Source: a virus | IMG/VR virus record: IMGVR_UViG_3300049489_001336 | Span: 64,001 to 128,000 of that record | Direction: 5' to 3' (one strand) | DNA length: 64,000 bases | Shown here: positions 1-34,453 of the stretch, piece after piece | How the letters are laid out: every line of letters starts with the position of its first letter | Position numbering within the stretch: position 1 is the stretch's first letter | Notes under the pieces: model-generated | The model's input: the letters and a program-made list of their open reading frames with translations, nothing else | The model's database searches: none | Told to the model about the DNA's origin: nothing | Program-made: the position numbers and the translations under genes

Positions 1-151
1 CATTTGAGCGTAAGGGTCTTTCCATGAACGTTTCCGCTACAAGGATATGTTCATAGATCCACCCGTCCCAGTTATCAGAGCGCATCGCTGATGCGTGCTC
101 CCCAACAAACACGACGCGGTACCCGTTCAGATAACGTACTTGCTTAGGCAT
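1..151 (-). CDS. HNH-type homing endonuclease, N-terminal 50 codons (runs off the window edge)
   Basis: Own translation from ATG at 151: MPKQVRYLNGYRVVFVGEHASAMRSDNWDGWIYEHILVAETFMERPLRSN, matching the GY...EH(R/I)LV.E..(L/M).R.L segment that precedes the HH..N..DN core of phage HNH endonucleases. The catalytic core is outside the window. Confidence 0.7.
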   Translation of the reverse strand, partial: MPKQVRYLNGYRVVFVGEHASAMRSDNWDGWIYEHILVAETFMERPLRSN

Positions 152-155
152 ATTG

Positions 156-191
156 ATGAGCCGGGGGCTCTGACCTTTGAGCTACTAGCCC
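156..191 (-). tRNA. 5' exon of an interrupted tRNA with CAU anticodon (Ile2 or Met)
   Basis: Minus strand GGGCUAG UA GCUC AAAGGUCA GAGC C CCCGG CU CAU. After CAU the sequence is CAAUAUGCC, with no CCGGG to close the anticodon stem; the HNH ATG follows 4 nt later. Confidence 0.8.
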
Positions 192-450: not shown

Positions 451-975
451 TCAAAACCGAGCGTAATACGCGTGGCGTTTGGCGTACTCTACATACCAAG
501 GTTCTAGCCCTAAAAGCAACGCGTGATTAAGCATCATTAAACGTCCTGAACGGCCATTGCCGTCTTCAAAGGGATGAATATGTTCAAACTCCACGTGGCG
601 ATTCCACACCCACGCGATACGTTCCTCTTCTGTGCGTTCTTTTTGTGCTTCAAACGTGTCCCGTACACGGTCCCACCAGTCGCGCAACAAAAGGGGCACT
701 TCCCGATAATCAGGACAAACGCGTCCTCCTACAGCTACGTTTATTTTACGTAGCTTACCGGCTTTATTCTTGAAGCCTTTCAATCTGCGCATTAGTAATG
801 CGTGCACCACAAGAGGGTGTACAAACAAATTTTCTTTGGACCTAGAGACAACGTACTGCGCTGCTTCTAGGTGGTCATCGTAGTGAGGGTCCCCCGGCAA
901 ATTGACGTGCCCTGGTTGAGGGTCAATCAAATTGTGTTCGTGCACAAAGGAATGAAGAAACTCTGCGGTAACCAT
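451..975 (-). CDS. Fic/Doc family protein (AMPylase-type)
   Basis: Canonical Fic motif HPFEDGNGRSGR. Confidence 0.9.
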   Translation of the reverse strand: MVTAEFLHSFVHEHNLIDPQPGHVNLPGDPHYDDHLEAAQYVVSRSKENLFVHPLVVHALLMRRLKGFKNKAGKLRKINVAVGGRVCPDYREVPLLLRDWWDRVRDTFEAQKERTEEERIAWVWNRHVEFEHIHPFEDGNGRSGRLMMLNHALLLGLEPWYVEYAKRHAYYARF

Positions 976-2535: not shown

Positions 2536-2609
2536 TGGTTCGGGAGCAGGGACTTGAACCCCGATAACAACATCCAAAGTGTTGTGTCCTACCGTTAGAC
2601 GACTCCCGA
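2536..2609 (-). tRNA. trnQ: tRNA-Gln(UUG)
   Basis: Cloverleaf: acceptor UCGGGAG/CUCCCGA, anticodon arm CAACA-CUUUGGA-UGUUG, T loop UUCAAGU, encoded CCA. Confidence 0.95.
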
Positions 2610-2665
2610 ATGAAATTATTCTATACAGCTAAACGAATTAAGCACAAGCTCAATTCCAAACCTAC

Positions 2666-3397
2666 TCAGGTTTCCGTGCCCGTAAGGGCCTGCAACGCTT
2701 CTTCGAGCGCTATGAAACGTTCTTTCATGAGCACAGCCCAGCTACTTACAACGAGCCGCACGGTGGCCTTATCAAGGCCCGTAGACTCGGTAAGGACGTT
2801 GAGCACGTCCATGGCGTACCTTTTGTTGTACTCAGGAACGTACATGCCATGGAAGCGCGTCGCAATTTCCTGGATTTTGGTCACAGGTATTTTGCTGCGC
2901 TTTCGCAGCGCACGGTCAATCACTTTGTCTGTGCCGTCTACAGGTTGCGCGTCTCCCAAGACGTACTCTCGCCATAGGTGTAGAACGGTCCCCGCGTACT
3001 TGGATCTTGGGGTAGGCGCCGTGTGCCCCGCTTCCCATGCCGTGTATTGCGTGGGGTGTACACCTATGCGTTTCGCCAACGTACCTCGTTTGAGGCCCAT
3101 CGCTGTTCGCAATCGAAGAAACTCGGCAGGGCTCAAAGGCCATTCAGGCATATCCCTTATGTCGGTGAGCTCTAACTGCGTCGGTTGCGCAGAAGCTTCT
3201 TCAGGGACTTCAGCCTTCTCTACATATTTTTTCCACAAAATACCTAGTTTTCGGTGGTACTTTTCACTGGGCTTATTATTGCCTTCCAACCAGTGCGTAA
3301 CACCGCGCCCAGAAATGCCCACTCTACGCGCCAATTCGGCGCGGGTAAATCCAGCGGCATTGATGAGTTGTTGGACACTCTCAGAATTCCATTCCAC
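2666..3397 (-). CDS. transcriptional regulator with two XRE-type HTH domains
   Basis: Two Cro/CI-like repeats: FTRAELARRVGISGRGVTHWLEGNNKP and LKRGTLAKRIGVHPTQYTAWEAGHTAP. Confidence 0.85.
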   Translation of the reverse strand: MEWNSESVQQLINAAGFTRAELARRVGISGRGVTHWLEGNNKPSEKYHRKLGILWKKYVEKAEVPEEASAQPTQLELTDIRDMPEWPLSPAEFLRLRTAMGLKRGTLAKRIGVHPTQYTAWEAGHTAPTPRSKYAGTVLHLWREYVLGDAQPVDGTDKVIDRALRKRSKIPVTKIQEIATRFHGMYVPEYNKRYAMDVLNVLTESTGLDKATVRLVVSSWAVLMKERFIALEEALQALTGTET

Positions 3398-3449
3398 AAT
3401 TTCTCTCCTTGTTATCCATGGTCTTTTACCAGGATCGGAGAGAATACTT

Positions 3450-3737
3450 TGGTAGGGACGGTCGGACTCGAACCGACAAGGTTTTTACACCGAAGGATTT
3501 TCTTACCACTACGACTTTCGTCGCCTTATGCTGTTTGTGGTCTGGACTATACCTTCACCGTACTCAAAAAGAGGTTAGGTGGCAGCCGTCTAGTCTCTAC
3601 ACGTTCCCTGTTCCAGGGCTTCGCTCGGTATTGCCATTTTACAGGTTTCACCGACTTTGACTGCATTCACGTCAAAGGTTTCCCTTTGAGTGCTCAATAT
3701 TTAAAGTCCTCTGCGTTTACCATTTCGCCACGCCCCC
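3450..3737 (-). tRNA. trnL: tRNA-Leu(UAA), intron-containing (exons 3704-3737 and 3450-3501)
   Basis: Exon 1 GGGGGCGUGGCGAAAUGGUAAACGCAGAGGACUU joined to exon 2 AAAAUCCUU...GGUUCGAGUCCGACCGUCCCUACCA gives anticodon loop CUUAAAA, a long variable arm and CCA. Confidence 0.93.
3502..3703 (-). mobile_element. group I intron (IC3-like, 202 nt, no ORF) between U34 and A35 of tRNA-Leu
   Basis: P1 CUU/GAG, P2 CUCAAAGG-GAAA-CCUUUGAC, P3 GCAGUC/GGCUGC, P4 UCGGU/ACCGA, P7 elements AGAGACUA and UAGUCC, P9 GAAA tetraloop, terminal G. Confidence 0.92.
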
Positions 3738-3738
3738 A

Positions 3739-3813
3739 TGGTAGTACCTGCAGGGATTGAACCTGCGACTTACCCCTTGTAAGGGGGTCACTCTGCCACT
3801 GAGTTAAGGTACT
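3739..3813 (-). tRNA. trnV: tRNA-Val(UAC)
   Basis: Acceptor AGUACCU/AGGUACU, anticodon arm ACCCC-CUUACAA-GGGGU, CCA encoded, 1 nt from tRNA-Leu. Confidence 0.93.
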
Positions 3814-3817
3814 TTAG

Positions 3818-3891
3818 TCAGGGTAGCTGGACTTGAACCAACAACCCCCGCGACCCAAACGCGGTGCGCTACCAGCTTGCGCTATACCCTG
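3818..3891 (-). tRNA. trnP: tRNA-Pro(UGG)
   Basis: Anticodon arm CCGCG-UUUGGGU-CGCGG, T loop UUCAAGU, no encoded CCA. Confidence 0.93.
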
Positions 3892-3892
3892 T

Positions 3893-4090
3893 TTAGAAGT
3901 AATCCCACAAGATCCCTTTCGGATATCTTACAGTAATTAATTCATAGTTCTGATGTATTAACTGAAGGCGTGCGCGTTGTCTAGCTTTTTTCCAACGGAT
4001 TCGTTGATCCCATCTTCGAAAACCCCTCGCGCATAACCCTCGTTCTATTTTATGCGTTTTACGCGACTTACGACGGTAATTCGTATGCAC
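3893..4090 (-). CDS. small basic hypothetical protein
   Basis: 65-aa Arg/Lys-rich ORF between tRNA genes. Confidence 0.5.
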   Translation of the reverse strand: MHTNYRRKSRKTHKIERGLCARGFRRWDQRIRWKKARQRARLQLIHQNYELITVRYPKGILWDYF

Positions 4091-4180
4091 ATAACCCTGC
4101 TAAGACGCCAAGTGAGCGTCATAGCGGGGCTTCGTGTTTATTCTCTAAATAAAACATGAATATACTCTTTCTTTTACCAG

Positions 4181-4265
4181 CGGAAGTAAAGGGATTCGAA
4201 CCCCTGGTGAATTGCTCCACGCCGGCTTTCAAAACCGGTGCCTTAAACCGCTCGGCCATACTTCC
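4181..4265 (-). tRNA. trnS: tRNA-Ser(UGA)
   Basis: Anticodon arm CCGGU-UUUGAAA-GCCGG, long variable arm, G73. Confidence 0.93.
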
Positions 4266-4275
4266 AAAGAGCCTC

Positions 4276-5772
4276 CTACTCGTTTTGAGTAGATGACAGG
4301 GCCGCAGTGCCTACGCCTAAGCCTGTCCCAAGACCCGCAGCACCCAACAATGCTTTATCTTGGTGCATACGCCCTGTAACACTTTCCTGTAACTTCCTAC
4401 TTATCAAAGGATTATTAAATGTTCCTGGTGTAGGATTAGATTCTATCAAACGAAAAGTGCCGTCAGGAAGTTCCGCGACATCAAATGCTTGATGAAGCGG
4501 GGCGTTATCGTAGTGCGATGTTAAAGGCTTATTCACTTTGCTAACAAAGTCTTCTAAAGCTTGGCGTCTATCCCCCGTAACGGGCATATGCGCAAAACCG
4601 CCTTCGCCTATTCCAAGGCTCGAAGACATCCTGTTCCACGCATCACGTATTTTGCCTTCAGGCAAACGGCGATGTGTCGATGCAAAGGGGACGCCTTGAA
4701 CCGTATGTACACGATACTCATTTTTGATGGGTATCTTTTGTTGAAGAATAAACCTGTTCGGGTTCTTCGCAATATCCTGCCAACGAGAATCCTTTAAGTC
4801 CGTTTTATTACTGACGAATGATGCGACATCGCCAAGGGACTCATCAACGGGTTTTATGAGCCACCCTTCCGGTAAATTTTTCGCTAAATGATTTTGAAGA
4901 GCATTCACATCTCCGTTAAATGCTTTCAAAACGTCCTGCATCTTTTCAGTCTCGGGAATTACGGCAGTGCCATCGTCTAAGTGTTCACGCACCTGTTTGA
5001 ACACGTCACCGAACGTGGCTTTATCCGCCATTGCTCCCGTTAAGCCTGAGTTCGCCGCATTTAGATCCACTTTACCTTGCACGGGGATCTGCGAAAAAGG
5101 AGATCCGTGGTGTAATACGGTGCTGTCTCTACGTAAGACTTCACGGTTTTTAGCAGCGGCAGCGACATCATCTGAAATGTCGTCAGCGCCGTATAAAACG
5201 CGACGTACAGCTCTCCCCAACGCCGAACCCGTAGGTCGATGCGTGGCTACTTCAAACGGGAGATCCTTCGCTTTTTCTTGGAGCTTCTGTAACGCAGGAG
5301 AGTCACTCGGTTTGAATCGACGTAAATATTTATACGCGGGATACATCGCGGCAGCGCCTAACCCTAAGCCTGTCAAAGTATCCTGCGTATCCCAATCATT
5401 TGCGAGCTTTACGCCTAACACATGGCATGCTGCTTTTTTACCTTGGGTATAGGGAACAGACTCTCCCACTGTATCAATAAACGTGGTAGAGGCTGCAGCA
5501 GGGCTCGGGGGACGGCTGAGAGTTTGCGGCCCTACGTTTAGAGACGACGAGGGCGGCGCTCCAGCGCCTAGCTGTTTGGTTACTGGCTGAGCAGCCAGGC
5601 GTGGTGTATTTTGCGAAACGCCGTATGATGCACCAGGTTTGCGCCGTAGATACTTACCTAGGCCGTAAGCGCCGAGACCCAGCGCCCCTACGCCAAGAAC
5701 AGACCCCCATCCCAGTCCTTGCTCTTTTTGGGATTGCTGCGGGTATTGTTGATTTTGATATGGGTTATTCAT
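4276..5772 (-). CDS. ATP-grasp (RimK-like) enzyme with Gly-rich hydrophobic segments and an internal copy of the shared G-x3-A-x3-LG motif
   Basis: ATP-grasp motifs WLIKP, FILQQKI..NEYRV, AFDV and LIESNPTPG; hydrophobic GxxxG helices near the N-terminus, middle and C-terminus; internal YTQGKKAACHVLGVKLA. Confidence 0.75.
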   Translation of the reverse strand: MNNPYQNQQYPQQSQKEQGLGWGSVLGVGALGLGAYGLGKYLRRKPGASYGVSQNTPRLAAQPVTKQLGAGAPPSSSLNVGPQTLSRPPSPAAASTTFIDTVGESVPYTQGKKAACHVLGVKLANDWDTQDTLTGLGLGAAAMYPAYKYLRRFKPSDSPALQKLQEKAKDLPFEVATHRPTGSALGRAVRRVLYGADDISDDVAAAAKNREVLRRDSTVLHHGSPFSQIPVQGKVDLNAANSGLTGAMADKATFGDVFKQVREHLDDGTAVIPETEKMQDVLKAFNGDVNALQNHLAKNLPEGWLIKPVDESLGDVASFVSNKTDLKDSRWQDIAKNPNRFILQQKIPIKNEYRVHTVQGVPFASTHRRLPEGKIRDAWNRMSSSLGIGEGGFAHMPVTGDRRQALEDFVSKVNKPLTSHYDNAPLHQAFDVAELPDGTFRLIESNPTPGTFNNPLISRKLQESVTGRMHQDKALLGAAGLGTGLGVGTAALSSTQNE

Positions 5773-5778
5773 AAAACC

Positions 5779-6432
5779 TCACATGAACCCGCGCATCTCT
5801 TTGTAGAGTTGATCTATTTTAGCTTGGTTAGCCGCAAATTCTGCTTTTTGCTTATGCCCCATTGCAGCATGCTCACCAACCCCTGCAACATCATCAAAAA
5901 AATGCCCTACATGTTTTGGGTTATTGACAAACTTAAAAGCTTCTTCTGCAACAGCAGGGTCCATACCTACACGACGTGCGTTATCCGGGTGTAGGTATGC
6001 TTGCATCTTCTTCAAATTAGGTGCGTTTTTACGCGCATTGTTTAGCGCTTCCTGGACTTGTGGACTCAAGTTAGTGAAGTCCGTTTTAACAGGGCGGCTA
6101 CGCCCTCTCAAAAAATCGATTTCTTGTCGACGCAAATCATTTAAATAACGTTTAGCACCAAAGCCCAGCGCACCCGTGCCTAGTCCGTATACCCCCGCGA
6201 AGACTTTCTGTGCGGTAGGGTGGTCTTCAAGTAACGGGTCATTATAGACGCCCACGCCTGCAATTGCTCCAGGAACAACACCATGGGCAATTTCACTCGC
6301 GACGGGAGCTGCCTTTTCCTTGACAAACTTGGCCGCTTGTTCTTTGAAATTAGGAACAGGCGCTGCCGTTTTTGCAAAACCAAGGACAGCGAAAGCACGC
6401 CCTGCCCCGGCCATATAAATCTGATCTGCCAT
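5779..6432 (-). CDS. Gly-zipper membrane protein with shared N-terminal motif and a J-domain-like HPD segment
   Basis: N-terminal YMAGAGRAFAVLGFAKTAA; two hydrophobic helices; KKMQAYLHPDN...AEEAFKFVN resembles J-domain helices II-III; paralog of 48740..49171. Confidence 0.65.
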   Translation of the reverse strand: MADQIYMAGAGRAFAVLGFAKTAAPVPNFKEQAAKFVKEKAAPVASEIAHGVVPGAIAGVGVYNDPLLEDHPTAQKVFAGVYGLGTGALGFGAKRYLNDLRRQEIDFLRGRSRPVKTDFTNLSPQVQEALNNARKNAPNLKKMQAYLHPDNARRVGMDPAVAEEAFKFVNNPKHVGHFFDDVAGVGEHAAMGHKQKAEFAANQAKIDQLYKEMRGFM

Positions 6433-6456
6433 GGCCTAAGTATAGGCTAAAATTAG

Positions 6457-6529
6457 AGCCCCCTGTCGGATTCGAACCGACGACCGCCAGTTTACAAAAC
6501 TGGTGCTCTACCGACTGAGCTAAAGAGGC
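6457..6529 (-). tRNA. trnT: tRNA-Thr(UGU)
   Basis: Anticodon arm CCAGU-UUUGUAA-ACUGG, standard D and T arms. Confidence 0.95.
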
Positions 6530-6563
6530 GAATAGGCTAAGCCTACTCAAAGCCCCTTTCCCG

Positions 6564-7259
6564 TCAATCTATTTCTAGAGTGAACGGAGCAGGTGGCAAA
6601 TAACGCTCTACTTGGTCTGGGCGTAGAGCTTCTACGACAGCTGATTTACGGACAAAGTTTTGCCGGCCAGGTCCTACACCGTCAGTTTCAAAGCACTCGC
6701 CTGTGCGAATATTCTTCGCACTACGAACAGGAACTACTTCCTTAGGCGAGCGGATAATCTCCGCGCCTTCTTTAATAGCCCAACCCGGTGAACTGCTAGA
6801 GTCCGTCCATACCTCCTGATAACGAATTCCTACAGGAACCACTACGTACGGATCGGAGTCCGTACAGCCCGTAGTCCCGTGATATTCACTGGTGCTCCTT
6901 GACAACTGGTTTGGGTCCAATTCTCCTGTCAAAGGATCCAATAAAGCATACTCAAACCCCAAACTGTCTTTGAATATCCTCTCCTTCACTCCGTGAATTG
7001 GCGCCAGTTCGCCATTGGCATCGCGCCATTTTGGACCGCGTGCGTCCCCAGGATCTCCCTTCGGACCTTGCGGGCCTTGGATTCCTTGAGGGCCTTGGGG
7101 CCCAGGTTCACCTTGAGGTCCCTGAGGTCCCTGAACTCCTGCTACGCCGTCATTCCCGGTAGCGGCTAGCGTGGGTTCTGCTGCTTTGTTTTGCAGCCCC
7201 AGGTCATCGCCGCCGCACGCCACCACAAGCAATAGGCAGCACAAAAATAGACTTTTCAT
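6564..7259 (-). CDS. collagen-like repeat lipoprotein
   Basis: Signal peptide with lipobox (MKSLFLCCLLLVVAC-GGDD) and about 13 consecutive Gly-X-Y triplets rich in GPQ; SD GGTGGGG before ATG 7259. Confidence 0.8.
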   Translation of the reverse strand: MKSLFLCCLLLVVACGGDDLGLQNKAAEPTLAATGNDGVAGVQGPQGPQGEPGPQGPQGIQGPQGPKGDPGDARGPKWRDANGELAPIHGVKERIFKDSLGFEYALLDPLTGELDPNQLSRSTSEYHGTTGCTDSDPYVVVPVGIRYQEVWTDSSSSPGWAIKEGAEIIRSPKEVVPVRSAKNIRTGECFETDGVGPGRQNFVRKSAVVEALRPDQVERYLPPAPFTLEID

Positions 7260-7311
7260 AATCCCCACCTTCCTTGACACTTGTGCCACAAAAAGGGGCG
7301 TTTTTATGAAG

Positions 7312-7710
7312 TTAAGGACTGAGTAGTCTCAGTACTTTTTTACGAAAATAACCAGGCGCGTTCTCCTCTTTTTCGAGGATTTTATTTACCTCGGTGAGCG
7401 TTAAGTTTTGTACTTTGTAGAGATCTGCAAAAGGCTGCGGATCCATTACTTTCCAAAACCTGCGACGCGCCGCCCGCGCCTGTGTCAGCGGTGCATTAGC
7501 CATTGTCAACAGAAAGCGGTCTTCAGGAGACAACTTCTGCTTTGCAGCATCAATAGCTATCTCCAACGCTGTTAATTGAGGCTGAATCGCTTCAACCTCT
7601 TCTGCGAAATACTTTGTGATCGGCGCATCGGGCGCGATCTTGTGTAAGAACCACATAATGACAGACCACAGGCCCATCGAGGTTCTATGAACCTTAAGCA
7701 TGGTAGACAT
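7312..7710 (-). CDS. hypothetical protein
   Basis: 132-aa ORF with SD GGGAG. Confidence 0.6.
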   Translation of the reverse strand: MSTMLKVHRTSMGLWSVIMWFLHKIAPDAPITKYFAEEVEAIQPQLTALEIAIDAAKQKLSPEDRFLLTMANAPLTQARAARRRFWKVMDPQPFADLYKVQNLTLTEVNKILEKEENAPGYFRKKVLRLLSP

Positions 7711-7759
7711 GACGCCATCTCCCTTCGACGTCTTGTACCATTATTATGAAGGTAATTAG

Positions 7760-7831
7760 CGCTCTCGGCGGGAATCGAACCCGCATTGCTGATGTGAAAA
7801 ACCAGTGTCCTAACCGCTAGACGACGAGAGC
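7760..7831 (-). tRNA. trnE: tRNA-Glu(UUC)
   Basis: Anticodon arm CUGGU-UUUUCAC-AUCAG, Glu-type D arm GUCUAGCGGUUAGGAC. Confidence 0.93.
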
Positions 7832-8088
7832 TTTTTACGACCTTCTGCAGTGATAAAGTATCTTAGTGCAGTCGTTTCGTCGATTTCCCAACGGAGGTAT
7901 CCCCGCTTGATGAGACCGTGCATCGAACGTTCGGTGTAGTCTACACGCGTATCTCCTATGCGAAGACGGATCTGCGCAAGCAGTAGCCCCGTCTCTCTAT
8001 GCAGCTCCGCCAAGATACGTAACTGAGCTTCTCCAAGACTTTTTGAGGCACGTTTTTTAACAGGAGACCCTGTAACCGCCAAACGCAT
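7810..8088 (-). CDS. winged-helix DNA-binding protein (MarR/PadR-like)
   Basis: Q..IL..L...helix...LIKRGYL......Y.IT.EGRK.L pattern; the stop codon lies inside tRNA-Glu. Confidence 0.6.
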   Translation of the reverse strand: MRLAVTGSPVKKRASKSLGEAQLRILAELHRETGLLLAQIRLRIGDTRVDYTERSMHGLIKRGYLRWEIDETTALRYFITAEGRKKLSSSSG

Positions 8089-8155
8089 ACGTTAATGCAA
8101 ACCTATACCTGTTTAGTACGTAGATACAACCAAGAAGTGTACTAAAATAACTGCG

Positions 8156-9604
8156 ATGCCTTCGAAACTTTCAGCGTTGATAACGCCTTTACAGCCTCAT
8201 CAGCAACGCGTTTTAGAACGTATACAGGACCCGAACCAGCCGGGGCTTGTCGTTGCCCATGGCTTAGGTTCTGGAAAAACGTTGTCTTCGATCGCGGCGG
8301 CCGACGCGTTACAAATGCCCACACACGTAGTAGTGCCGGCAGCGCTTAAAGCAAATTACTTAAAAGAACTACAGAAACATCGTGTTAATCAAGAAGAGGA
8401 TTTCAACATACACTCTTTACAGCGAACTTCGCGTGTCCCTGACGTACCTAATTTAACCGATAGTGCCCTCATAGTTGATGAAGCCCACAGACTTAGGGAT
8501 CCTAGCACTAGAGGCAATCAACTATTTAAACACTTGCGCGCTAAGAAGCGCCTACTTTTAACTGCAAGCCCTGTTTATAACCACCCTGCCGATTTATCGT
8601 CATTGGTCAACCTCGCTGCAGGCAGTAAACAACTTCCTGAAGATCGAAAAGACTTCGAAGCCGCCTACACAGGCATGGAAAAGATAAGCCCCGGTTTCTG
8701 GGCTCGTTTACGCGGCGTAAAACCGGGTGAACGTCAAGTCCTAAGAAACAAGGCTCATCTACAAAAAATACTTAATAAATGGGTTGATTACCACGAAAAT
8801 ACAAGTACCGAAGATTTCCCCTCTACTAAAGAGGAAATCGTAAATGTTCCAATGTCTGAAAAACAACAGGAAATCTACGATGGCCTGTTAAACAAAGCTC
8901 CTTTTTGGATTCAATACAAAATCAAGAATAACTTGCCTCCTACGAAGCAAGAAAAGCAGTTAATCAACTCATTTTTAACGACACAGCGGCAGGTCGCAGG
9001 CAGTCCCCACACATTCGTCCAAGGGATGTCCGTGGACGAAGCGGTGAACCACACGCCTAAGATTCAAGAAGCTTTGAAACGTCTCAAAGCACAAATGCAG
9101 GCAAATCCTGACCACAAAGCAGTTGTGTATTCTAATTATTTAGATTCAGGGCTTGAGCCCTATCGGCATCTTCTTGAAAAGGAAAAAATCCCCTATGGGA
9201 TGTTCACGGGGAAGATGAAGAAAAAAGAAAGAGATCAATTAATACTTGATTACAACGCCAACAAAATTAAGGCGTTGTTGTTGAGTTCTGCAGGCGGGGA
9301 AGGTCTGGACTTAAAAGGTACCCGTCAAATCCAAGTCTTAGATCCGCACTTCAACGAAGAAAAGATTCGGCAAATCATTGGGCGAGGCGTTCGTTATAAG
9401 AGCCACACTCATTTGCCTGAAGACCAACGCAACGTGCTCATTGAGCGTTATTTGTCCAAAAATAGACCGACATTTTGGAACAAACTGACAGGTGGGAACA
9501 AAGACACTACCGCTGAAGAATACTTGGATCAATTGTCCAAGGAAAAGCTGCGGTTAAATGATCAAGTTATTGAACTACTCAAACAACGTAATAGTACAAC
9601 ATAG
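8156..9604 (+). CDS. SNF2-family SF2 helicase/ATPase
   Basis: Motifs I (HGLGSGKT), II (DEAH), III (TASP), V (SSAGGEGLDL) and VI (QIIGRGVR). Confidence 0.9.
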   Translation: MPSKLSALITPLQPHQQRVLERIQDPNQPGLVVAHGLGSGKTLSSIAAADALQMPTHVVVPAALKANYLKELQKHRVNQEEDFNIHSLQRTSRVPDVPNLTDSALIVDEAHRLRDPSTRGNQLFKHLRAKKRLLLTASPVYNHPADLSSLVNLAAGSKQLPEDRKDFEAAYTGMEKISPGFWARLRGVKPGERQVLRNKAHLQKILNKWVDYHENTSTEDFPSTKEEIVNVPMSEKQQEIYDGLLNKAPFWIQYKIKNNLPPTKQEKQLINSFLTTQRQVAGSPHTFVQGMSVDEAVNHTPKIQEALKRLKAQMQANPDHKAVVYSNYLDSGLEPYRHLLEKEKIPYGMFTGKMKKKERDQLILDYNANKIKALLLSSAGGEGLDLKGTRQIQVLDPHFNEEKIRQIIGRGVRYKSHTHLPEDQRNVLIERYLSKNRPTFWNKLTGGNKDTTAEEYLDQLSKEKLRLNDQVIELLKQRNSTT

Positions 9605-9614
9605 CGTTTAAAAC

Positions 9615-9689
9615 CTCCGACGCCAGGACTCGAACCTGGAACCCCCAATTTAACAGATTGGTGCTGACTACCAATTGAGCTACGTCGGA
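9615..9689 (-). tRNA. trnN: tRNA-Asn(GUU)
   Basis: Anticodon arm CCAAU-CUGUUAA-AUUGG, acceptor UCCGACG/CGUCGGA; slightly enlarged D loop; antisense to both flanking CDSs. Confidence 0.88.
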
Positions 9690-9720
9690 ATGATTCTTAA
9701 TCGTACAGGACGCCAAGCAA

Positions 9721-34216: not shown

Positions 34217-34367
34217 AGCGGTAACAAAAAGTGAAAAGTCGTTTGGCTTTTGCTCTACCAACTGAGCTACCAGCCTGTAAAGACTTCTGTAAAGACTTCT
34301 GGCAGGCTGGGATGGACTCGAACCACCGACCCAAAGTGTGGATGTAGACCTTTCGGCATTTACCGCT
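34217..34367 (-). ncRNA. Y-RNA-like unit H (YrlA-type)
   Basis: Terminal helix AGCGGUAA/UUACCGCU, GCCGAAAG in the 5' strand, T arm, stem CCAGCCU/AGGCUGG with G-CCA in the closing loop, D arm UAGCUCAGUUGGUAGAGC. Confidence 0.85.
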
Positions 34368-34453
34368 GGTGCAGGAGGAAGGACTCGAACCTCCGAAGTG
34401 CTAAGCACATCTGGTTTACAGCCAGACCCCTTTGCCGCTCGGGACAATCCTGC
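34367..34453 (-). tRNA. trnY: tRNA-Tyr(GUA)
   Basis: Anticodon arm UCUGG-CUGUAAA-CCAGA, variable arm, CCA whose last A is the first base of unit H. Confidence 0.92.

Follow-up and report, generated by a model that had tools for sequence, protein, structure and literature searches.

A probable bacterial-type group I intron carrying an HNH endonuclease gene in a phage tRNA(CAU) gene

Introduction

What is a phage tRNA gene that breaks off directly after its CAU anticodon and is followed, a few nucleotides later, by the start of an HNH endonuclease frame? The question is raised by one end of a 64,000-nucleotide stretch of DNA, called the window here, which covers positions 64001-128000 of contig C1, the one 189,879-bp contig of IMG/VR record IMGVR_UViG_3300049489_001336, a freshwater phage rated 100% complete. 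A preliminary description, made from the letters of the window, proposed a probable group I intron carrying a homing endonuclease, and named as the other possibility a tRNA disrupted by a free-standing HNH insertion.

According to a 2014 review (PMC3984707), all phage group I introns then known were in protein-coding genes, despite many phage tRNA genes, and Lak phages, with their unclassified "enigmatic" introns, have been put forward as the first case of introns in phage tRNAs (Devoto et al. 2019, PMC6784885). A survey of bacterial and archaeal genomes only distinguishes the cyanobacterial fMet intron ("fMet.2Ug"), inserted after U33, from the Azoarcus type ("Ile2.5Ug"), inserted after U36 (Williams 2020, bioRxiv 10.1101/2020.01.27.920355). 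The Synechocystis tRNA-fMet group I intron with I-Ssp6803I is credited to Bonocora and Shub 2001, as cited in PMC3984707. Intron ORFs are usually restricted to peripheral loops (Hausner et al.). We found no published description of a phage tRNA(CAU) HNH-intron family in full-text searches of the literature, which does not prove that none exists.

Materials and methods

The missing part of the gene was sought in genome positions 58001-68000 (fetched as L001). Since the intron mode of ARAGORN misplaces the junctions of these genes, giving Pro(cgg) for this one and Gln, His or Leu for relatives, junctions were mapped by brute-force in-silico splicing, requiring a U at position -1 and a G at the intron end, with ARAGORN as judge. 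The structure was tested on an alignment (A2) of 12 complete split genes, with the helices read from this phage's own sequence. Homologs were retrieved by a protein database search and by an alignment-based scan of viral contigs; scans of viral contigs with the exact exon-2 pattern and with the single protein gave no match, nor did a blastn search of INPHARED phages with the locus as query. For bacterial relatives, the conserved core signature was sought in one genome per prokaryote species, and junctions in the hits were mapped in the same way.

Results

The locus is laid out as follows.

Window 156..191, minus strand: exon 1 of tRNA(CAU), 36 nt (sequence and in-silico splice)
Window 1..155, minus strand: first 155 nt of the 701-nt intron, start of loop L1 (RF00028)
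Window 2..151, minus strand: first 50 codons of the 181-aa HNH ORF, ATG at 151-149
Genome C1 64151-63606 (L001 6151-5606), minus strand: full 181-aa ORF, stop TGA inside P5'
Genome C1 64000 down to 63455, minus strand: rest of the intron, 546 nt past the window start
Genome C1 63454-63418, minus strand: exon 2 of tRNA(CAU), 37 nt, outside the window, 546-582 nt before window position 1

Exon 1, read from 191 to 156 on the minus strand, is GGGCTAG TA GCTC AAAGGTCA GAGC C CCCGG CT CAT, that is, the acceptor 5' strand, the D arm, the anticodon-stem 5' strand and C32 U33 C34 A35 U36. U36 is at window 156, and the 5' splice site separates it from position 155. The preliminary description had recognised here a tRNA 5' half ending in CU-CAU, without the CCGGG stem partner and with an ATG 4 nt later, and the sequence reads so: CAU is followed by CAAT and then by ATG. 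It had also noticed an HNH-like frame cut by the window edge, and this frame, 50 aa and open at its 3' end in the window, continues to 181 aa in the genome. The other half of the tRNA, predicted to begin with about AACCGGG and to carry a T arm, was found past the window edge. It consists of AA, the anticodon-stem 3' strand CCGGA, the variable loop ACGTT, the T arm GCAGG-TTCGAGT-CCTGC, the acceptor strand CTAGCCC and the discriminator A. The two halves are 701 nt apart, and joining them in silico gives a tRNA(cat) by ARAGORN with a 7-nt CU-CAU-AA loop; the sole junction that restores this loop places the intron end ..AAUGGG before AACCGGA, so that the intron ends in the terminal G expected by the preliminary description. 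ARAGORN did not call this tRNA within the window, where it called eight others, because half of the gene falls outside. A chance look-alike of a half-tRNA was considered and is ruled out by the partner half 701 nt downstream together with 13 further split loci.

The DNA between the two halves matches the group I intron family RF00028 (L001 5912-5462) with 76 bits against a gathering score of 50 (E 2.6e-18; 1.2e-20 for the whole genome), and the ribozyme core judged from sequence and comparison is complete, P1-P9 with the P3/P7 pseudoknot. Its elements, apart from P1, are the following.

Genome C1 63896-63893, minus strand: guide GGUG
Genome C1 63890-63871, minus strand: P2, GCAA loop
Genome C1 63864-63858 with 63521-63515, minus strand: P3
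Genome C1 63855-63849 with 63602-63596, minus strand: P4
Genome C1 63845-63842 with 63610-63606, minus strand: P5
Genome C1 63590-63573, minus strand: P6
Genome C1 63564-63558 with 63489-63484, minus strand: P7
Genome C1 63557-63528, minus strand: extra hairpin between P7 and P3'
Genome C1 63514-63496, minus strand: P8
Genome C1 63478-63463, minus strand: P9, GAAA loop
Genome C1 63455, minus strand: terminal G

Thus the P3-P9 core that the preliminary description had hoped to see lies beyond the window edge, and the absence of both a core and a tRNA 3' half, by which it would have preferred a disrupted tRNA, does not apply here. Together with the terminal G, exon 2 and the recurrence at the same site described below, the match supports the proposed intron. 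We consider it highly probable that this tRNA(CAU) is split after U36 by a 701-nt bacterial-type (IC3-like, "Ile2.5Ug") group I intron with an acquired HNH homing-endonuclease gene.

Comparison of the 12 complete split genes supports both the ribozyme and the tRNA. Standard pairs are formed in 91.8% of the alignment cells, versus 32-45% when the partners are slid by 1-3 columns; changes occur on both sides at 56 of the 81 pairs, and none of 500 shuffles matches any observed measure. Pairing reaches 98.8% in P3, 97.6% in P4, 93.8% in P5, 98.8% in P6, 100% in P7 and 85.5% in P8, and stands at 79-94% in the additional two-part hairpin that separates P7 from P3'. P9 is 61% paired, a low score due to alignment shifts in a length-variable hairpin rather than to absence of the helix. 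All four tRNA stems are 100% paired across the 12 loci, with compensatory changes in the acceptor, D and anticodon stems. The anticodon stem, formed between exon 1 and exon 2, covaries at all four of its pairs although its halves are 700-790 nt apart in the DNA, and therefore the split tRNA is under selection. This argues that the spliced tRNA is what selection sees, and it is the strongest sign at hand that the ligated tRNA is made and used.

P1 was located by comparison with bacterial relatives, because these have the same GUG layout directly 5' of P2. In all 12 loci it comprises the wobble U36.G297 and the pairs A35-U298, C34-G299 and C+1-G296; the guide GGUG, directly 5' of P2, is invariant in the phage family, so all P1 pairs are invariant and hence without covariation support. 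The loop spanned by P1 (L1) measures 258 nt in this phage and 258-337 nt across the family. Three other candidates for P1 were rejected in favour of the GGUG indicated by the bacterial relatives. One was a 3-bp hairpin pairing CAU with the AUG start codon; another, a pairing with intron positions +49 to +59 inside the ORF (-11.5 kcal/mol), has counterparts of similar energy at unrelated sites in relatives; and in the third, the leader hairpin CUGAAC..GGUUCA..AUG, U36 would face A in five of nine members, G in three and C in one, and three members lack the hairpin.

The ORF passes the Pfam HNH_3 model (PF13392; 28.6 bits, cut-off 24.8) and matches PHROG 15471 "HNH endonuclease" end to end (E 5e-26). 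The database search returned 35 homologs of the same length with 33-57% identity. In the resulting alignment of 36 sequences (A1), H54, H55, N63, N67, H76 and H80 are invariant; the HNH core predicted from the truncated frame is thus present as HH..N..N..H..H. Four invariant cysteines (C111, C114, C126 and C130) follow as a Cys4 ribbon, and the C-terminus is a helix-turn-helix of the GRKYGVSDNAVRKWA type. The alignment-based AlphaFold2 model has a pLDDT of 86.9 with a single disordered stretch, residues 91-107. Residues 1-85 find their closest structural counterpart in I-HmuI (1u3e), with a moderate match (Z 7.4, below 8; rmsd 2.6 over 74 residues; Foldseek E 0.22), and residues 136-181 match helix-turn-helix DNA-binding domains at Z of about 5. 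Foldseek against the PDB gave nothing at E 0.001 or better, a PDB sequence search with the protein gave no meaningful match, an NCBIfam scan of it gave just a sub-threshold ZorE stretch, and no HNH paralog was found elsewhere in the phage genome.

The position of the ORF relative to the ribozyme differs from what had been supposed. The preliminary description placed an endonuclease ORF near the 5' splice site, which holds for its start codon, but the frame extends through L1, the guide and the 5' strands of P2-P5 before it ends in P5'. The HNH domain (codons 1-85) lies in L1; codons 86-104 are at the same time the guide GGUG (codons 86-87, Gly-Ala) and the 5' strands of P2 (88-94), P3 (96-98), P4 (99-101) and P5 (103-104); and loop L5 is taken up by codons 105-181, which encode the Cys4 ribbon and the helix-turn-helix. 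The disordered stretch of the model coincides with the codons encoded by P2-P5. In A1, the linker "GAPG..VNSGKSK" is found in intron-borne members, is partly kept (GAPG..GVSLGKPK) in the protein of a decayed locus, L007, and is absent from the free-standing members P0028, P0033 and P0034. This distribution indicates that the RNA, rather than the protein, best accounts for the conserved linker. As a separate observation, P0008, P0015, P0017, P0021, P0023, P0026 and P0027 have C-terminal tails of the form ..SQA.STL.EGAETTGEV. The EGAETTGEV tails correspond to the translated conserved P6/J6-7/P7 part of the ribozyme, so in these homologs the reading frame extends into the core.

The same intron and ORF were found at the same site in at least 14 phage or metagenome loci. 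The ORF lies inside an RF00028 match in L004/L005, L006, L012/L013, L015, L017, L019, L020, L021/L022, L023, L024 and L026, and each RF00028-matched locus resolves by brute-force in-silico splicing to a tRNA(CAU) split after U36. There are twelve independent loci with the ORF in an intron at this site, and L016/L018 and L025 carry the same element just below the Rfam threshold. The introns of the phage family are 700-790 nt long, and the host contigs range from roughly 1 to 395 kb, several being phage genomes of 150-400 kb. Two side observations concern these contigs. In L006, ARAGORN calls a "tRNA-Stop" with anticodon UUA at 2470-2542, directly followed by another RF00028 match (74.9 bits, 2576-2802); beside the CAU intron there may be either a suppressor tRNA or a split tRNA that was mis-called. 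In L034 (2773-3168, 130.6 bits) and L020 (1089-1448, 99.5 bits), large phage contigs that also carry this HNH family, tmRNA genes (RF00023) lie in tRNA clusters.

Every homolog with at least 46% identity and examined DNA is in a tRNA(CAU) intron at this site, except one. At L007:2920-3620, tRNA halves flank an HNH ORF (P0020, 47% identical), but the locus does not match RF00028 and its anticodon region is mutated. It has the look of a degenerated copy of the element, a tRNA pseudogene in which the HNH gene is left, and it is the scenario that the preliminary description opposed to an intron, a tRNA disrupted by an HNH gene with no ribozyme core, realised in a relative. If L007 is an end-state, the phage studied here might itself be on the way to it, with a ribozyme that splices poorly, a tRNA(CAU) that is effectively a pseudogene, and only the HNH gene maintained. 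Just CAAU separates its splice site from the ATG, unlike most relatives, which have a leader of 30-80 nt with a CUGAAC..GGUUCA hairpin and a Shine-Dalgarno sequence; nine of 12 relatives have both features, three members are without the hairpin, and this phage lacks both hairpin and Shine-Dalgarno. Its intron 3' tail, GUAAUGGG, is also divergent from the family consensus ACAAACNUG. These losses, with the divergent tail, could reduce splicing or translation efficiency. However, all core helices of this phage are intact, its RF00028 score exceeded those of the other loci in the first comparison, its four tRNA stems are preserved, guide GGUG and terminal G are present, and the allele is unchanged in a second sample. 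We therefore regard decay in this phage as very unlikely and prefer an intact intron.

The second sample comes from an independent freshwater study, in which identical intron-bearing contigs were found with both splice junctions covered and no differences. A search for RNA sequencing runs containing this DNA found none. No intron-less exon-exon joint was found in three DNA runs; read-layout record X2, 5443 to 8585, resembled such a joint and was rejected as cross-mapping between the T arms of different tRNAs. The lack of an intron-less allele in these runs could suit another reading, in which the intron splices but the HNH enzyme no longer homes into tRNA(CAU), and instead cuts nearby or competitor DNA (marker exclusion, cassette spread) or aids splicing. 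The distant homologs also bear on it. Within the tRNA arrays of phages they are free-standing, 4-80 nt away from tRNA genes of various kinds (Gly, Arg, Thr, Cys, Glu, Lys, Met), and they are not tied to tRNA(CAU).

L010, L014, L029, L032, L034, L035, L039, L043 and L045: free-standing distant homologs, several at about 2001-2500

Intron-encoded HNH enzymes of the I-HmuI type act as nickases and cleave DNA that contains the intron as well, which we count in favour of this reading. On the other hand, the closer homologs keep the same intron and site except for the decayed L007, as site-specific homing predicts. A non-homing enzyme, or one that aids splicing, is thus very unlikely, and homing remains the preferred reading.

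The tRNA(CAU) is the only CAU tRNA of the phage and is not an initiator, as it has G1-C72, C11-G24 and C29-G41. The other tRNAs and the neighbouring genes are listed here.

Window 2536-9690 and 34367-34453; genome 62467-62541: phage tRNAs
Window 3502-3703, minus strand: intron of tRNA-Leu(UAA), 202 nt, ORF-less group I, RF00028 56.5 bits
Window 451-975, minus strand: Fic/DOC-domain gene upstream of the split tRNA
Genome C1 62934-63413, minus strand: DenV-like pyrimidine-dimer glycosylase (Pyr_excise, E 5e-24), starting 5 nt after the tRNA 3' end

The other anticodons belong to Lys(UUU), Gln(UUG), Val(UAC), Pro(UGG), Ser(UGA), Thr(UGU), Glu(UUC) and Leu(UAA), plus GUU and GUA. Nearly all of the phage tRNAs have U34 and read A-ending codons, a set that suggests compensation for a host poor in such tRNAs. 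The tRNA(CAU) is probably a tRNA-Ile2 reading AUA after lysidine modification by the host, or else an elongator tRNA-Met; Ile2 is favoured because most phage tRNAs read A-ending codons and because the insertion class is the Ile2 one. TilS (PF01171) is not encoded in the phage genome. The second split tRNA that had been suspected in this cluster is tRNA-Leu(UAA), which was missed by ARAGORN; its exons (about 3704-3738 and 3450-3501) are split between U34 and A35 (CUU|..G|AAAA), the classical "Leu.3Ug" setting. An Rfam scan gave exactly two group I matches in the phage genome, both in the same tRNA cluster. The gene order HNH then Pyr_excise is also kept in L004/L005.

The bacterial scan yielded introns at Leu(UAA) loop position 3 (19 loci), CAU position 5 (11), CAU position 2 (3) and Arg position 5, and so recovered the intron classes of Williams 2020. 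The CAU position-5 introns are 223-294 nt long, ORF-less, proteobacterial and chromosomal, and begin CAU|CAAAAU-GGUG-[P2], with GUG directly 5' of P2 and an L1 of about 6 nt. They have in common with the phage intron the CAU anticodon, the insertion after U36 and the GUG guide, and with the phage family the P2 and P9 GNRA loops, the core signature GAGCCAAG..GAAGGUGCAGAGACUA..GAUGAGAUAGUCC, and the J4/6-P6-P7 and J8/7-P7' motifs. Furthermore, a proteobacterial sub-lineage (L098, L118, L119, L127, L128, L151, L164 and L174) shares the hairpin between P7 and P3' with the phages. The shared guide layout, core and hairpin indicate that the phage intron is a derivative of the bacterial "Ile2.5Ug" (Azoarcus-type), IC3-like lineage, as read from sequence. 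The two differ in that the bacterial members are ORF-less and chromosomal, whereas the phage family has an HNH gene in L1 and L5 that is translated through the guide and P2-P5. By this comparison, the phage L1 grew from about 6 to 258-337 nt by the HNH domain, and L5 gained the Cys4 ribbon and the helix-turn-helix. The core signature was also seen on L105, L134 and L156, contigs binned as Pacearchaeota and Methanosarcinaceae MAGs; mis-binning has been suspected for archaeal-binned cases of such introns (Williams 2020, bioRxiv 10.1101/2020.01.27.920355).

Discussion

Comparison of the sequences identifies the element as a phage-borne, endonuclease-carrying form of the group I intron classically found in bacterial tRNA(CAU) genes; its layout, in which the ORF runs through the core, is unusual. 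Of the two analogues named in the preliminary description, the Azoarcus tRNA-Ile intron is apt, as it occupies the same site after U36, and the cyanobacterial fMet intron is not, as it lies after U33 (Williams 2020) of an initiator tRNA.

The fMet intron is thus set apart by its host tRNA and by its site, the phage junction being after U36 of a tRNA without initiator features. Its endonuclease I-Ssp6803I is a PD-(D/E)XK protein, not an HNH enzyme. A possible counterpart of the enzyme is I-HmuI/I-HmuII from the DNA polymerase introns of Bacillus phages SPO1/SP82, likewise HNH enzymes of phage group I introns. I-HmuI has an N-terminal HNH module and a C-terminal helix-turn-helix module, as does the phage tRNA-intron enzyme, but the latter has an extra Cys4 ribbon and no detected sequence similarity to solved structures, its host gene is a tRNA gene rather than a protein-coding one, and its ORF is threaded through ribozyme strands rather than confined to one loop. 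Free-standing endonucleases of the T4 SegB type (PMC13096335) resemble the distant homologs of this HNH protein in lying between phage tRNA genes; however, SegB is a GIY-YIG enzyme and not intron-borne, whereas the gene studied here lies inside a ribozyme.

We infer that the phage intron splices and homes, as follows. The precursor would be transcribed with the tRNA cluster, U36 would pair with the guide G in a long-range P1, and exogenous guanosine would attack after U36. The terminal G would then replace the guanosine in the P7 site, and ligation of the exons would give the mature tRNA. The enzyme may be translated from the excised intron as a near-leaderless mRNA, with its AUG 4 nt in and no Shine-Dalgarno sequence, while translation of the unspliced precursor would open up P2-P5. 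In co-infecting relatives whose tRNA(CAU) gene lacks the intron, the HNH enzyme would make a nick or a cut close to the anticodon, and repair of the cut allele would copy the intron in. Homing is proposed because the HNH gene is intact, because the association with the site is strict across phages, and because a decayed copy exists; the site association holds across phages with very different tRNA exon sequences.

The threading of the ORF through the ribozyme may have a regulatory meaning. It is conceivable, albeit doubtful, that the arrangement is a built-in switch, in which the ribosome melts the core so that each transcript is either spliced or translated. If so, selection would act on one RNA stretch in two roles, as catalytic RNA and as a disordered linker that the protein tolerates, and the excised intron would be the sole source of the enzyme in this phage.

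In summary, large phages very probably harbour a tRNA group I intron of bacterial type whose nearest kin is the Azoarcus/Ile2 class. It would connect the classical bacterial tRNA introns, which lack ORFs, with a plausible means of spreading horizontally. Its ribozyme strands, translated as a disordered protein linker, would be a compact natural case of dual coding. Since split tRNAs of this kind are invisible to standard tRNA finders, the tRNA repertoires of phages are under-counted.
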